Assembly: GCA_944388765.1 (NCBI GenBank)
Contig: CALXKA010000002.1
Span: forward strand, 11,509-75,508
Direction: 5' to 3'
Source: an uncultured Clostridia bacterium
GTDB taxonomy: Bacteria; Bacillota; Clostridia; TANB77; CAG-508
DNA: 64,000 bases
In this document: piece by piece, positions 16,487 through 19,912 of the stretch
Layout: each line of letters starts with the position of its first letter
Numbering within the stretch: the first letter of the stretch is position 1
Notes under the pieces: generated by a model
Told to the model about the DNA's origin: nothing
The model's input: the letters and a program-made list of their open reading frames with translations, nothing else
The model's database searches: none
Made by a program: the position numbers and the translations under genes

Positions 16487-17521
16487 TTATTTTGTTAGAA
16501 TAAATTCATTTAATAGCTTATTTACTAACTTATAGCTATTTGCATGTTTTGCATGTCCTTTCCATGAGTTTATACAAGCTGTTATATATGTTAATTCTAT
16601 TTTTCCTTTTTTATATAACTTTTGAAAATTCTTTAACTTTCTTTTCATTTTCTTTTTACTTTGTTCTCTTAGTAATCTATGTGTTTTCCATATTCTAAAT
16701 CCACAATAGTTTATTCCTTGATTTTGTTTAAAATATGCTGTTTTTGAATTTAATTCTAATTTTAGATTTTCATCTAAGAATTCTTTTATTTTTTCTAACA
16801 CTTCTTTTGTTTTTTCTTTACTTTCTAATGTTAAAACAAAATCATCCATATATCTTGTATAGTATTTGATTTTTAATTTTTCTTTTATGTATTTATCTAG
16901 TTTTGTCATGTAAATATTTGCATAGTATTGTGATGTGTAATTTCCTATTGGTATTCCTATTTGTTCTTGGTTATAAAATATTATCTTCTTACTAAATCTC
17001 AGAAAGTATTTATCTTTTATTTTTCTTTTTAATAAATCAAATAATATTTGCCTATCTATATTAAAAAAGAACTTTTTAATATCACATTTTAATATCCACA
17101 CTTCTTCATATTTTTTATCTGCTTTTTGTAAATATTTTTGTGTTTGTTCTACTGCTTTATGCGTTCCTTTTGTTTCTATACATGCATAGCTATCATTTAC
17201 AAAATTCGGTTTGAAATATGGTTTTAAAAAGTTTTCTACATACCATGTTTGTACTACTCTATCCTTATAATTTAATGTCTTTATTTTTCTTTCTTTTGGT
17301 TCATATATTGTAAATTCAAAATATTCTGAAAAAGTATATGTATTATTTAATAATTCTTTTCCTATTTGTATCAAATTACTTTCTAATTTCATTTCAAATT
17401 CTATTACTTGCTTTTTGAATCTTTTGTTTTTCTTACATTTATTATGTGCTTCTAATAGCTTTGTAAAAGTTATATTTTCTTTAAAAATATTATTTACTCT
17501 TTTAGGCATGATTTTATCCAT
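16487..17521 (-). CDS. DGR reverse transcriptase
   Basis: RT motifs include YMDDFVL (motif 5) and the DGR-typical IGNYTSQ in motif 4. The gene overlaps the 3' end of avd. The start is ambiguous (ATG at 17521 or 17509; the ORF extends to 17563). Confidence 0.9.
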   Translation of the reverse strand: MDKIMPKRVNNIFKENITFTKLLEAHNKCKKNKRFKKQVIEFEMKLESNLIQIGKELLNNTYTFSEYFEFTIYEPKERKIKTLNYKDRVVQTWYVENFLKPYFKPNFVNDSYACIETKGTHKAVEQTQKYLQKADKKYEEVWILKCDIKKFFFNIDRQILFDLLKRKIKDKYFLRFSKKIIFYNQEQIGIPIGNYTSQYYANIYMTKLDKYIKEKLKIKYYTRYMDDFVLTLESKEKTKEVLEKIKEFLDENLKLELNSKTAYFKQNQGINYCGFRIWKTHRLLREQSKKKMKRKLKNFQKLYKKGKIELTYITACINSWKGHAKHANSYKLVNKLLNEFILTK

Positions 17522-17862
17522 CCTCCTAATATTTTTCCTATTTCTTCTAACTTTTTTGACCATTCGTAATAGTTTTTTGTGTTTATATATTTATTTTTAT
17601 ATGAAAATCTGACTAAAAAACTTTGCATAGCTATTTCAGCATCTAATCTATTTAGTATGTCTAACTTATTATATTTATTAGCTATTTTATTAGCATAGAG
17701 TATATATCTTAAAGAAGTATACATACATTTTCTTATTTCATTTACTAGTGCATATTTTTCATATTTTGGATACTTGATTAACAACTTATATCCATATTCT
17801 ATTAAATCTACATATTTTTGATATATCAGTAATTTACTTTCTGTCTTCTTTGGCTTATACAT
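17494..17862 (-). CDS. avd: Avd accessory variability determinant (four-helix-bundle, 23S rRNA IVS-type protein)
   Basis: 122 aa, basic. It carries YPKYEKYALVNEIR...ANK...LEEIGKILGGWIKS, the typical Avd/four-helix-bundle pattern, and lies directly upstream of the RT. Confidence 0.85.
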   Translation of the reverse strand: MYKPKKTESKLLIYQKYVDLIEYGYKLLIKYPKYEKYALVNEIRKCMYTSLRYILYANKIANKYNKLDILNRLDAEIAMQSFLVRFSYKNKYINTKNYYEWSKKLEEIGKILGGWIKSCLKE

Positions 17863-18051
17863 TTTTATCCTTTCCAGAATAGAAAAAAGAAAAAGTATAT
17901 TCGTTCTTAATCATCAAATGAAATACTAGAATATACTTTTATATTTATATTTTTACCAATATCTATGCCTATTGGAAGGAATATACCTTGTATGGCATAT
18001 ATGCTCTATATTTATCCTTGAACAAATATATCTGATAATGTTATGCCATAT

Positions 18052-18198
18052 TGCAAGACATACACGAAATCCGTCGTTGTTGTTGCTGTTCCCATTGTTG
18101 TTGTTGAAGTTGAATACTCCTGCATTGGAAGTATTGTTGTAGTTACCACCACGTATGAAGAAAGGGAGGTACGAATCGACAAAGTCGGCATTATCGTT
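18052..18198 (-). repeat. DGR template repeat (TR); high-identity core 18052-18174
   Basis: Gapless alignment to 18350-18496 (offset 298). The coding-strand sequence is rich in AAC codons (NNFNNNNGNSNNND). Confidence 0.9.
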
Positions 18199-18340
18199 TA
18201 GCATGTATATCTCTATGCTTTTCACTCAAGCTTTGCTCGAACGCAAAGTACTTATTTCCTATTTTCGCTTATTTTCTATTTTCACTATTTATACCTAGTG
18301 TAAATTTTCATCTTGTACTGCTCAGATAACAGATATCACA

Positions 18341-19912
18341 TTACTGTACTGCAAGACATACACGAAATCCGTCGTCGCTGACGCTGAACCCACTGCTGCT
18401 GCCGAAGAAGAATACTCCTGCATCGGAAGCATTGCGGTAGTTACCACCACGCATGAAGAAAGGGAGGTACGACTCGACAAAGAAGGCAAGATCGTTATTC
18501 CATCCGCTTGTTTCATATAGTGCATCTCCTATATTTGAATTGTTTGCACTCGTAGTTGTATATAAGTTATAATATTTACTTTCTGGGAATTCTGGGAATT
18601 CTGTAAATCCTGATTCTCCTGTTGCTGGTGAACCATTTGTCCCGTATACTCCCATTACATATTCATATGCTCCTCCTGACATATCATATATTCCATATAC
18701 ATTTCCTGTTGTACTTGATAATTTTCCTATTTCTCCATTATATCTTTGACTTTCTTCTATTTGATCACTACTATAAGTAGAGTTCCACATTTGATTAGTT
18801 CCTGTTCCTCTTCCTGCTCCTGTTATATAACTACTGCATTGGTTTACACTTACTTCTGTTCCATTTCTTCCGTATTGACTTTGTGTTAGATATGCTACTG
18901 CTCCCCACTCTGTATTTTTTAACATATGTGCATCTATATTTGTTTTACTTAATGTTTGGGCTCTACTAAACATTGTTGATACATTTATATTTGTTAAACT
19001 TGTTGCATTTGGTACTATTGCCACATTATTATTTCCTGCATCTGAACTTTCATATTTTCCTATCCATAGTCCTTCTAAATTTTGTGTTCCAAATGTAAAT
19101 GCTGGATGTACATAATATGTGTCTGTACTATTTATTATTTCATCTGCATTTGTTGCTATTTCTGCATCTTTTAATTCTCCATCATCTCCATAGTATTGAT
19201 TTGTTGTTCCTATTAAGAATTTTACATCTATTTTATAACTTATTCCTTCATCTTGTGTTTTATATGGTGTGTTTTTATCTATTTTATATGCATATCTTGG
19301 TATCCATACATAATAATTTCCTTCTAATTCTGCATTTGCCCATTCACTTGTTCCTCCATTTTCTGTTGTTCCTGCTTGGGCTTCATATTTATATGCACTT
19401 TTTGTTGTATCTTCTTCCCAATTTCCATTATTATATACTACTAATTTCATATTGTCTTTTAATTTGGGTGTATTTACTCCTTCTTCTGTATCATAACTTC
19501 CGTCTGTTTTTCCTATTTCTCCTCCTCCTGGATTACTATTTCCTGCTGTTACACTTCCATCTTCATTTATTGTTACATCATATCCATCTACTACTACTGT
19601 TGCAGGTAGTTTATCTATTGGAAGTCCTGATGTTAATCCTTCTACATTTTTTAAATTTTCATTTAATAAATCATAATCTATGTTTCCATCTTCTCCATAA
19701 CTTCCTAATACCTCTACTGCTACTTTTTCTTCTGCTGTTTTTCTTCCTGTTTCTTCTGCTGCATCATTAGCTCTTGTTAATATTCCATTTTGTCCAGTTA
19801 GGGTTGCAATTGATACTGCTGCTAAAATTAATAGTACAATTATTGTTATTACTAATGCTATTAATGTAATACCTTTTTGTTTACTTCTTTTCATTTGTTT
19901 TCCACCTTTCAT
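18341..19912 (-). CDS. DGR variable (target) protein: pilin-like N-terminal hydrophobic leader plus C-terminal FGE-sulfatase/C-type-lectin-fold domain ending in the VR
   Basis: N-terminus KRSKQKGITLIALVITIIVLLILAAVS. C-terminal region GLWIGKYE...NTEWGAVAYL...GNVYGIYDMSGGAYEYVMG...RGGNYRNASDAGVFFFGSSSGFSVSDDGFRVCLAVQ. Confidence 0.85.
   Translation of the reverse strand: MKGGKQMKRSKQKGITLIALVITIIVLLILAAVSIATLTGQNGILTRANDAAEETGRKTAEEKVAVEVLGSYGEDGNIDYDLLNENLKNVEGLTSGLPIDKLPATVVVDGYDVTINEDGSVTAGNSNPGGGEIGKTDGSYDTEEGVNTPKLKDNMKLVVYNNGNWEEDTTKSAYKYEAQAGTTENGGTSEWANAELEGNYYVWIPRYAYKIDKNTPYKTQDEGISYKIDVKFLIGTTNQYYGDDGELKDAEIATNADEIINSTDTYYVHPAFTFGTQNLEGLWIGKYESSDAGNNNVAIVPNATSLTNINVSTMFSRAQTLSKTNIDAHMLKNTEWGAVAYLTQSQYGRNGTEVSVNQCSSYITGAGRGTGTNQMWNSTYSSDQIEESQRYNGEIGKLSSTTGNVYGIYDMSGGAYEYVMGVYGTNGSPATGESGFTEFPEFPESKYYNLYTTTSANNSNIGDALYETSGWNNDLAFFVESYLPFFMRGGNYRNASDAGVFFFGSSSGFSVSDDGFRVCLAVQ
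18350..18496 (-). repeat. DGR variable repeat (VR) forming the 3' end of the target gene; core 18350-18472
   Basis: In the 123-bp core I counted 18 mismatches versus the TR. All are at plus-strand T in the TR, which is A on the coding strand. The first non-A mismatch is at TR 18175. Confidence 0.9.

Follow-up and report, generated by a model that had tools for sequence, protein, structure and literature searches.

An uncultured gut Clostridia bacterium with very AT-rich DNA (GC 25.6%) carries what we consider, with a probability of about 0.88, to be a genuine, intact diversity-generating retroelement (DGR) on the host chromosome, of the type that contains a MutS-like DGR accessory protein (MSL; Architecture D of Wu et al. 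2018). DGRs of this kind are already well known; the locus is a correct but ordinary find and adds little conceptually. It belongs to a compact, comparison-ready family with ~20 species-level relatives. No other natural system that hypermutates proteins in a targeted way is known from prokaryotes, and DGRs reach their highest density in the gut microbiome.

Within the 64-kb stretch of DNA that we analyzed (the window), the cassette reads in minus-strand order: a tandem hairpin array, MSL, an HTH gene (on the opposite strand), the target gene with its terminal variable repeat (VR), the template repeat (TR), a structured spacer, avd and the reverse transcriptase (RT) gene. The initial annotation had placed a complete cassette, with its canonical parts co-oriented on the minus strand, at 16487–19912. 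The TR, VR, avd, RT and target gene were all found there, with ORFs and orientation matching that description, but the cassette reaches to ~20924, as it is conserved together with MSL, the divergent HTH gene, the leader hairpin array and the non-coding RNA elements. We collected 22 related loci from gut Clostridia MAGs for comparison.

The repeat pair, RT and Avd

A repeat finder returned a single direct repeat, gapless and 84% identical at a spacing of 298, which pairs the TR (minus strand, 18049–18198) with the VR (minus strand, 18347–18496), the final 50 codons of the target gene. No second VR was found in the 64-kb window. The 150-nt TR contains 48 adenines and, read in the VR frame, 11 AAC and 4 AAT codons among 50, in keeping with its earlier description as AAC-rich on the coding strand. 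A gapless alignment at offset 298, with 18 core mismatches all at TR adenines, had also been reported. Our base-by-base computational recount on the minus strand (TR 18052–18174) agrees, with 18 of 18 mismatches at TR adenines in a core of 39 A in 123 nt (hypergeometric P = 3.6e-11). TR/VR homology continues past this core on either side. The divergence had been called strictly adenine-specific, which is accurate within the chosen core but not over the full 150-nt repeat, where 22 of 24 mismatches lie at TR adenines (P = 3.7e-11). At these adenines the VR carries G (13), T (7) or C (2), and 26 adenines are unchanged; the ~27 nt at the common 3' end of TR and VR are never mutated. The two remaining mismatches are TR G18186 to T and TR T18175 to G. 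The first is probably a later point mutation in the window TR, since the TRs of related strains carry A at that position.

The target C-terminus recurs in an ORF-like frame that contains the TR, as an ordinary partial gene duplication followed by normal divergence, beside an unrelated RT of retron or group II intron type, might also produce. A duplication would not confine mismatches to one base of one copy (P ~4e-11), and the identical pattern occurs in 16 independent loci. All 16 related loci with a readable TR/VR pair have repeats of ~145–160 nt (only 68 nt aligned in L027), with 9–32 mismatches each, 83–100% of them at TR adenines.

The RT gene (minus strand, 16487–17509) encodes 340 aa from M19, the start used by public gene calls; the longest ORF starts at 17563, and there is a 16-nt overlap with the avd stop. 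The protein matches Pfam RVT_1 (2e-22) and PHROG 1423 (6.6e-120) and aligns over its full length with bRT of Bordetella phage BPP-1 (8ub7_A; E = 1.2e-54, residues 1–330 vs 1–317). Both motifs named in the initial annotation, YMDD and IGNYTSQ, are present, as are the equivalents of bRT R74 and I181, residues that promote adenine mutagenesis. The signature motif of DGR RTs is [I/V/L]GxxxSQ (PMC7826257). The NCBIfam group II intron and retron models do match the RT, in line with the duplication reading, but weakly, partially and far below their cut-offs; the best group II intron RT match (4e-17) trails bRT by 37 orders of magnitude. Judged by these alignments, the window RT is a member of the DGR clade.

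The avd gene (accessory variability determinant; minus strand, 17494–17862) encodes a 122-aa protein of pI 9.6. The Avd-type gene claimed earlier is borne out by an NCBIfam DivGenRetAVD score of 97.5 bits, which exceeds the curated cut-off of 80, and by matches to Pfam bAvd (2e-26), the PHROG family 'Avd protein of DGR' (1.5e-34) and PDB 4dwl (Bbp7; E = 1.7e-5). An Rfam search found no intron RNA or retron family at the locus. The adenine-restricted mismatches, the 16-locus pattern and the bRT match refute a partial gene duplication, to which we assign a negligible probability, and the Avd gene and the Rfam result also speak against it.

The target protein and its chromosomal setting

The target gene (minus strand, 18341–19894) encodes 517 aa with the VR at the C-terminal end. 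The initial annotation gave 523 aa, the length of the longest ORF (18341–19912); the ORF and its terminal VR stand, but public databases start at M7 (19894). The protein consists of a hydrophobic N-terminal helix, a beta-rich middle domain of ~200 residues with no confident match, and a C-terminal FGE-type C-type-lectin fold ending in the VR. A Foldseek search of the PDB with the AlphaFold model (pLDDT 87) ranked TaqVP (5vf4), a DGR variable protein of Thermus aquaticus, best (E = 1.9e-9), followed by PvdO and FGE. TaqVP, which likewise has an FGE-type C-type-lectin fold with the VR at its end, is also the best sequence match of the C-terminal domain (E = 3.6e-5), although the identity is only 16% and the window target adds the N-terminal helix and the beta-rich middle. 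The C-terminal domain thus models as the C-type-lectin fold of TaqVP. Among 81 target homologues, Pfam FGE-sulfatase was detected in 48 and N_methyl (weakly) in 26.

The target N-terminus is pilin-like and hydrophobic (KG|ITLIALVITIIVLLILAAV) and nearly invariant among homologues down to 42% identity. A class III signal peptide has Gly at −1, a hydrophobic α1 helix and Glu at +5; the target has Gly at −1 and a highly conserved hydrophobic helix, with Ala, not Glu, at +5. Its N_methyl score is 19.6 bits against a Pfam cut-off of 21.2, and its best NCBIfam matches are all pilins or pseudopilins, at weak scores (E = 0.0035–0.04). No prepilin peptidase or pilus assembly genes occur among the annotated genes of the 64-kb window. 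The locus points to a large family of DGR targets that lacks annotation, the pilin-like C-type-lectin surface proteins of Clostridia, which number over 7,900 homologues.

The first DGRs came to light in phages, and the RT and Avd both match phage protein families (PHROG), as they would in a prophage whose DGR diversifies a receptor-binding (tail fibre) protein, as in BPP-1. We hold this to be very improbable. The cassette is surrounded by chromosomal housekeeping genes (mfd, topoisomerase, LeuRS, AddB and SpoU methylases), with no phage structural or lysis genes within 64 kb; no relative of the cassette was found among 2.9 million viral contigs, and the closest GenBank phage RT is 43% identical to that of the window. 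The hydrophobic, pilin-like N-terminus of the target is also not a tail-fibre architecture. The element is chromosomal, not phage-borne.

The chromosomal element resembles the BPP-1 DGR (mtd-avd-TR-brt) in its RT (full-length match, IGxxxSQ, YMDD, R74 and I181), its Avd homologue, the adenine-specific flow of information from TR to VR, the position of the VR at the C-terminus of a C-type-lectin fold, and a structured non-coding segment after the TR. It differs in its cellular location, its gene order (target-TR-avd-RT vs target-avd-TR-RT), its additional MSL and HTH genes and its target, a pilin-like surface protein rather than a tail fibre. It also lacks the GC-rich IMH or hairpin after the VR, and has an AT-rich invariant 24-nt motif instead.

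Turnover of the variable repeat

The order MSL-HTH-target-TR-avd-RT is retained across differing genomic neighbourhoods, and 9–12 species-level relatives have the accessory genes. Among 14 close homologues of the target, mean entropy is 1.84 bits at VR codons whose first or second position corresponds to a TR adenine, 0.44 bits at VR codons without A, and 0.20 bits outside the VR. The window and one related locus (L001) differ at 1 position in the TR and 26 in the VR (17% of positions); TR, 3' RNA domain and avd-RT together differ by 4 in ~1700 nt. Relatives carry a few non-A differences (e.g. 4 of 15 in L001). The strains compared also differ by 4–5% in the target body, so part of the VR difference between them could be old. 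Two other loci, L034 and L035, match at 99.64% of positions over 6.6 kb and share one TR sequence; 8 bases of their VRs differ, 7 of these at TR-A positions.

The ORFs are all intact and the RT keeps its catalytic and signature motifs, and the description of the element as intact holds. Its description as 'probably active' is reasonable and draws on indirect support, from the comparison of related strains. An unlikely but still serious alternative is that the element is a genuine DGR present as a silent or fossil copy, in which retrohoming took place in the past and which is now repressed (e.g. by the HTH protein) or dead. The only other contig of essentially the same sequence (L002) carries exactly the VR of the window, and the mismatch at 18186 suggests a TR mutation more recent than the latest rewriting of that VR segment. 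The RT of L034, a close relative, has a 1-nt frameshift and the L036 lineage has lost TR-avd-RT, and therefore decay does occur in the cassette family. What became of the VR in that lineage speaks indirectly for activity where the parts are kept: the L036 VR is decayed, 45 of its 63 mismatches being at non-A positions, and two proteins of the lineage (P0008 and P0013) have identical VRs despite 6.5% divergence elsewhere. Against a silent or fossil copy stand the intact ORFs and motifs, the strong conservation of TR, 3' RNA domain and avd-RT beside a VR that differs at 17% of positions, and the different VRs of close strains with identical TRs, all of which favor an element that is probably active.

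Accessory genes and RNA elements

The MSL gene (minus strand, 20360–20848) encodes a 162-aa protein with a MutS domain-I fold, four conserved cysteines and a C-terminal helix, and is syntenic in 9 species-level loci of differing genomic context. The Pfam MutS_I score of 21.5 bits is just over the cut-off of 20.6. For the AlphaFold model (pLDDT 84), all 50 of the PDB fold matches listed are MutS, MSH2 or MSH3 chains (probability 1.00), spanning ~110 aligned columns at the domain-I end of the model. In an hhalign comparison with E. coli MutS, which has the motif GDFYE and the mismatch-contacting Glu38, GAFFN of MSL lies opposite GDFYE; the Phe is kept and the Glu is replaced by an invariant Asn. 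The Phe-x-Glu mismatch-binding motif, a feature of MutS and not a stated criterion for MSL, is therefore absent. Because Asn replaces the mismatch-contacting Glu38, MSL may not recognize mismatches the way MutS does. Deletion of host mutS in Bacteroides reportedly raises DGR mutagenesis 5–10 fold, and thus there is a rationale for a MutS-domain accessory protein; given this suppression by host MutS, the present family could address what that protein does.

The published accessory class consists of small (112–283 aa) stand-alone homologues of the MutS mismatch-binding domain that occur with avd (PMC5758913), and the window MSL is a member of it, with a pI of 9.2 that is above the published MSL mean of 7.2. 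Architecture D comprises 16 of 372 DGRs, Legionella included (PMC5758913), and shares with the window a small stand-alone MutS-domain-I protein with avd and without an HRDC gene. The MSL-bearing Bfr, Bth and Bun DGRs of Bacteroides diversify pilus-associated adhesins of gut bacteria. Unlike these MSL-containing DGRs, the window element has a Clostridia host and a target whose N-terminus is type IV-pilin-like, not of type V pilus tip architecture. Its family also has a divergently oriented HTH gene that is conserved and, ahead of MSL, a tandem array of hairpins. No description of either of these two features was found in the DGR literature cited here.

The Cro/C1-type HTH gene (plus strand, 20076–20261; 61 aa, Pfam HTH_26 7.8e-9) is divergent from the target gene and occupies the same position in 11 related cassettes, at 84–94% identity (45% in L022). 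A consensus scan located a promoter-like site facing the target gene (TTGACA-16-TAAAAT with extended TG; minus strand, 20017–19990). The palindrome AACTC-AAAA-GAGTT (minus strand, 20016–20029) overlaps the −35 hexamer of this site and is a putative HTH operator, conserved in the window and in L012, L015, L020, L024 and L034; in L022, where the HTH protein is only 45% identical, another palindrome replaces it. By analogy, the HTH protein may repress the target promoter through this palindrome, and the family could address DGR regulation.

The hairpin array (minus strand, 20878–20924; identified with TRF) contains 2.3 copies of the self-complementary 20-nt unit GTGCTCGAAATAAAAATCGG and sits 29 nt upstream of the MSL start, its final two units forming an 11-bp hairpin followed by a U-run (RNA fold −25.7 kcal/mol, z = −4.9). 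It is in the same place in 12 related cassettes, at 2.3–5 copies, with units identical within a locus and different between lineages. One tentative and rather doubtful reading joins these parts into a self-regulated, repair-aware module: an HTH repressor would gate target-TR transcription through the operator at the −35, the copy-number-variable array would tune MSL expression, and MSL, with its retained Phe, Glu-to-Asn change and four-Cys site, would bind the mismatched cDNA/VR heteroduplex and stop host MutS from bringing back the parental sequence. The host, a Gram-positive gut anaerobe, would present the diversified product on a filament resembling a type IV pilus. If true, such display would have its counterpart in Bacteroides, whose DGRs diversify adhesins at the tip of type V pili.

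An alignment of 11 loci with an RNAalifold consensus defined a structured, 'Sp'-like non-coding domain 3' of the TR (minus strand, 17882–18048). It comprises P1 (18050–18043 with 17998–17991), P2 (18030–18021 with 18016–18007), P3 (17989–17986 with 17979–17976), a variable hairpin (17975–17956) and a terminator-like hairpin (17940–17929 with 17902–17891) followed by a U-run (17894–17882), all on the minus strand; the last leaves ~20 nt before the avd start. In this domain 98.7% of cells are paired, vs 37–58% with partners slid, and nine pairs show compensatory changes, with a covariation score reached by 0 of 500 shuffles; the single-sequence fold agrees (z = −2.5). The domain fits the published finding that an Avd-binding non-coding segment is required downstream of the TR (PMC6182149).

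Directly 3' of the VR, spanning the target stop codon, lies the motif AGTAATGTGAWATCTGWWAWSTGA (minus strand, 18322–18345), which is absent from the TR. These 24 nt are invariant in 12 loci, the surrounding spacer being otherwise unconserved, and are AT-rich without a clear hairpin. The motif, at the position of the IMH and its flanking element, is a candidate for the cis signal that directs integration of the cDNA.

By analogy with the BPP-1 and Bacteroides systems, the TR and its structured 3' domain would be transcribed together, and an Avd-RT complex would bind the 3' domain, the presumed Avd-binding and priming site, and reverse-transcribe the TR, with misincorporation restricted to adenine positions. 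The resulting cDNA would replace the VR, anchored at the invariant 3' end common to both repeats. In this way ~25 codons would be rewritten in a pilin-like surface protein, secreted or anchored in the membrane, at the face of its C-type-lectin fold that binds ligand. MSL might act on the cDNA/VR heteroduplex with its dense mismatches, perhaps protecting it from host MutS. The family could also address which RNA elements around the TR are needed when the TR precedes avd.

A 12-locus alignment revealed two further elements upstream of the TR, the conserved box ATAGAGATATACATG (minus strand, 18216–18202) and a hairpin (minus strand, 18248–18236 with 18230–18218) in which 91% of cells are paired and 2 pairs show compensatory changes. 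The plus strand of this hairpin resembles an intrinsic terminator.

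Repeat pair, reverse transcriptase and element class

The only strong direct repeat that a repeat finder gave for the region pairs the template repeat (TR, 18049-18198, minus strand) with the variable repeat (VR, 18347-18496, minus strand) of a diversity-generating retroelement (DGR) without gaps, at a spacing of 298 nt and 84% identity. The initial annotation had described a gapless alignment at this offset with 18 mismatches in a 123-nt core, all at TR adenines, and a computational recount on the minus strand confirmed it (18/18, with 39 A in the core; hypergeometric P = 3.6e-11). 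The homology runs beyond that core by 24 nt on the 5' side and 3 nt on the 3' side. Over the full 150 nt of the coding (minus) strand, 22 of 24 mismatches fall at adenines (P = 3.7e-11), so the earlier wording 'strictly adenine-specific' holds for the core and has to be relaxed for the whole repeat, over which the bias is overwhelming. The non-adenine mismatches are at TR G18186 and TR T18175. Because the TRs of related strains carry A at 18186, the simplest reading is that the window TR would have changed from A to G after that part of the VR was last rewritten. Scanning both strands for matches at TR non-A positions revealed no further VR in the window. Plain duplication is excluded by the base-specific mismatch bias and its recurrence in independent loci; of the related loci, all 16 whose TR/VR pair could be read show the adenine-restricted pattern.

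The reverse transcriptase (RT) gene most likely encodes 340 aa (16487-17509, minus strand), the start used in public gene calls; an exact-sequence look-up of the 358-aa RT ORF gave no record, databases using the 340-aa start. RT residues 1-330 align to bRT, the RT of the Bordetella phage BPP-1 DGR (8ub7_A), with E 1.2e-54, versus 4e-17 for the best group II intron RT, and this comparison excludes a retron or group II intron RT. The YMDD and IGNYTSQ motifs noted previously are borne out by the bRT alignment: YMDD is intact and IGNYTSQ fits the DGR signature [I/V/L]GxxxSQ. The equivalents of bRT R74 and I181, both shown to promote adenine mutagenesis (PMC7826257), are kept. Upstream of the RT gene, the predicted Avd-type gene (avd, accessory variability determinant; 17494-17862, 122 aa) proved to be one, scoring 97.5 bits against a curated cut-off of 80 in the NCBI DGR-Avd model; its product matches the structure of BPP-1 Avd (4dwl) as well.

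The element appears to work like the BPP-1 DGR, and it has the RT, accessory protein, adenine-biased TR/VR pair and VR-bearing target gene by which DGR membership can be tested. It differs from BPP-1 in being cellular rather than phage-borne, in having the TR upstream of avd, and in the additional genes for a small MutS-like protein (MSL) and a helix-turn-helix (HTH) protein. It belongs with the MSL-containing DGRs of Architecture D. The window is chromosomal (mfd, topoisomerase, LeuRS, AddB, two SpoU methylases and LysR regulators) and contains no phage genes. A phage origin is rejected, since no relatives turned up among 2.9 million viral contigs and the closest phage RT in GenBank shares 43% identity. 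Gut microbiome catalogues already contain thousands of DGRs; the core finding is thus correct, but the kind of element it identifies is ordinary. The comparative set adds modestly to it by exposing a putative HTH/operator pair, a Phe-x-Asn motif in MSL, a hairpin array and a TR-flanking RNA domain.

Evidence on activity, and loss of the machinery in relatives

Comparisons among relatives, including the adenine-restricted pattern that all 16 readable loci share, provide good, if indirect, evidence that the DGR is probably active. Across 14 target homologues (83-100% identity), entropy is 1.84 bits at VR codons whose first or second position is a TR adenine, versus 0.44 bits for VR codons without adenine and 0.20 bits outside the VR. 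In a comparison of the window with L001, a closely related contig, 17% of VR positions differ, against 0.7% in the TR and 0.2% in avd and RT taken together. One rival reading alone is serious: the window copy may be silent or a fossil. L002, the only near-identical contig, has the same VR as the window, and decay occurs in the family: the L034 RT is frameshifted, L033 has an orphan target beside a truncated TR, and L036 has lost TR-avd-RT. Against this stand the closely related loci L034 and L035, which come from different samples and share 99.64% identity over 6.6 kb: their TRs are the same, but 8 VR positions differ within 27 nt, 7 of them at TR adenines. We consider a silent or fossil copy unlikely. 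A search of JGI metagenomes for VR variants with a VR-specific 26-mer gave 0 matches.

Locus L036 (1-9542) is a natural loss-of-RT control, which is a further gain from the comparison. It retains mfd, MSL, HTH and the target and has lost TR-avd-RT. The former VR shows decay, with drift mostly at non-adenine, third-codon positions; of its 63 mismatches to the TR, 45 are not at adenines. Two target homologues of this lineage, P0008 (the L036 protein) and P0013, are 6.5% divergent outside the VR and differ at 0/50 residues inside it, whereas in DGR-bearing lineages with 0.4-7% outside divergence 10-48% of VR residues differ.

Several observations concern individual relatives. In L034 (3415-4438) the RT is split by a 1-nt indel, while L035, otherwise 99.6% identical, has an intact RT; ten substitutions clustered within 170 nt beside the indel suggest a recombination patch or an assembly error. 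L033 (4001-5925) carries the orphan target copy, 91% identical, with D-Ala-D-Ala ligase and DnaJ as its neighbours; after it come the post-VR motif, the upstream hairpin and what is left of a TR, truncated and decayed, but neither avd nor RT. Since L033 and the DGR-bearing L001 are from one sample, this copy might act as a second target, served in trans, or be a dead duplicate. Several avd-bearing metagenome contigs end in or near the repeats (within the VR in L006, within the TR in L010, within the spacer in L007 and L009, and just past the TR in L005), which fits assembly breaks at the repeat and at a heterogeneous VR equally well.

Cassette extent and non-coding elements

A complete element had been placed at 16487-19912. 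The RT, Avd, TR/VR and target in that interval stand, but the cassette is larger, including MSL (20360-20848, 162 aa) and a 61-aa Cro/C1-type HTH gene (20076-20261), encoded on the opposite strand in the interval from MSL to the target. An RT scan with one genome per species gave 22 loci, all in uncultured gut Clostridia metagenome-assembled genomes. Nine of the 22 have the gene order MSL, (HTH), target, TR, avd, RT, and only two of the nine share the window's mfd and SpoU neighbours; the whole block from MSL to RT thus travels as one unit. A YhgA/Rpn-type (Transposase_31) gene (13453-14496, minus strand) lies ~2 kb past the RT, and homologues occur near the cassette in other species (L016, L020, L026). 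In L016 they flank the cassette on both sides, and an 81-nt direct repeat (4645-4725 and 11021-11101) brackets the region.

MSL matches Pfam MutS_I. Its model (pLDDT 84) has as listed fold matches only MutS, MSH2 and MSH3, at the domain-I end of the model, with probability 1.00. Sequence searches of the PDB with a single sequence or a profile did not find MutS, and the link to MutS comes only from Pfam, fold comparison and hhalign. In the hhalign alignment the invariant GAFFN of MSL lies opposite GDFYE of E. coli MutS, so that the mismatch-stacking Phe is presumably retained and Glu38 presumably replaced by Asn. Four invariant cysteines suggest a metal site. The family is small (381 clusters at the 50% identity level, from 1.84 billion representatives), and the best 150 matches are all short proteins. 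Small MutS-like proteins are a published DGR accessory class, found in 16 of 372 DGRs and defining Architecture D (Wu et al. 2018, PMC5758913); they occur in Bacteroides DGRs too.

A stretch of ~165 nt on the 3' side of the TR is highly conserved. Its consensus fold, a set of nested hairpins, begins exactly where the TR/VR homology ends and is followed by a long hairpin and U-run just before avd. Across 11 loci 98.7% of cells in this domain are paired, versus 37-58% in slid controls, and nine pairs show compensatory changes. The domain occupies the same position as 'Sp' in BPP-1, an Avd-binding segment needed for processive, self-primed cDNA synthesis (PMC6182149). No Rfam family covers the TR flanks. 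Upstream of the TR are a conserved 15-nt box and a 13-bp hairpin (18218-18248) with some covariation. This hairpin is conserved, and its A-rich 5' flank and lack of a U-run on the TR strand give it the look of an intrinsic terminator on the opposite strand; possibly it blocks antisense transcription into the target gene.

The VR is followed by an invariant 24-nt motif that lies across the stop codon and that the TR lacks. This motif takes the position of the BPP-1 IMH and flanking hairpin, but is AT-rich with no evident structure, whereas the BPP-1 IMH is GC-rich. Pairing of the TR-downstream RNA (CAGAUAU) with this motif (ATATCTG) was considered and rejected, as the complementarity is lost in L015, L016 and L020.

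Upstream of the target, and facing it, is a promoter-like site (TTGACA-16-TAAAAT with TG), whose -35 is overlapped by the palindrome AACTC-AAAA-GAGTT (20016-20029). The palindrome is kept wherever HTH is kept, and L022, with an HTH only 45% identical, has another palindrome instead; the obvious reading is that the palindrome is likely an operator and HTH its repressor. Upstream of MSL, a tandem array (20878-20924, minus strand) contains 2.3 copies of a self-complementary unit. In the related cassettes the copy number runs from 2.3 to 5, with units of 19-21 nt, and the array lies 23-30 nt upstream of the MSL start. The array occurs at the same position in L012, L014, L015, L020-L024 and L034-L036, with a single hairpin instead in L016; units are 100% identical within a locus and different between lineages. 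The last two units form a strong terminator-like hairpin followed by a U-run. The interval from the array to the MSL ribosome-binding site is too short for a promoter, and a scan of the 20-nt repeat array itself revealed no acceptable -35/-10 pair.

Target protein and neighbouring features

The target gene (18341-19894, minus strand) ends in the VR, as first annotated, the VR forming its last 50 codons. Its model (pLDDT 87, built with 81 homologues) has as best PDB match the Thermus aquaticus DGR variable protein TaqVP (5vf4, E 1.9e-9), followed by PvdO and formylglycine-generating enzyme (FGE). The protein is thus predicted to have an FGE-type C-type-lectin fold, which is typical of DGR targets. 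The family has >7,900 homologues, almost without annotation. The target body (18497-19894) is 4-5% divergent from L001 and L004, versus 0-0.8% for TR, avd and RT; target and diversification machinery thus seem to differ in history, via recombination or selection.

The first 35 residues of the target, KG|ITLIALVITIIVLLILAAVSIATLTGQNGIL, hardly vary even in homologues with as little as 42% overall identity, a conservation far above the need of a simple membrane anchor. The Pfam N_methyl match of the target is below threshold (19.6 versus 21.2 bits), with weak matches in 26 of 81 homologues, and the best NCBIfam matches of the isolated N-terminus are all to pilins or pseudopilins, and weak. Position +5 is Ala, where the canonical pilin residue is Glu, and the window has no pilus genes. 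Type IV pilin-like display is therefore no more than a lead. In one survey, a GspG-type pilin domain is among the rare domains found to bear a VR (PMC11661182); the literature on pilin-type DGR targets yielded nothing specific to this target family.

Two further features of the window were observed. A 426-aa protein (10258-11538, minus strand) has a Cas_csx3 domain match of 28 bits against a cut-off of 21, with no CRISPR array or other cas genes noticed nearby. A full-length OLE (ornate large extremophilic) RNA lies at 59383-59975 on the minus strand, with 343 bits where the Rfam gathering score is 50.
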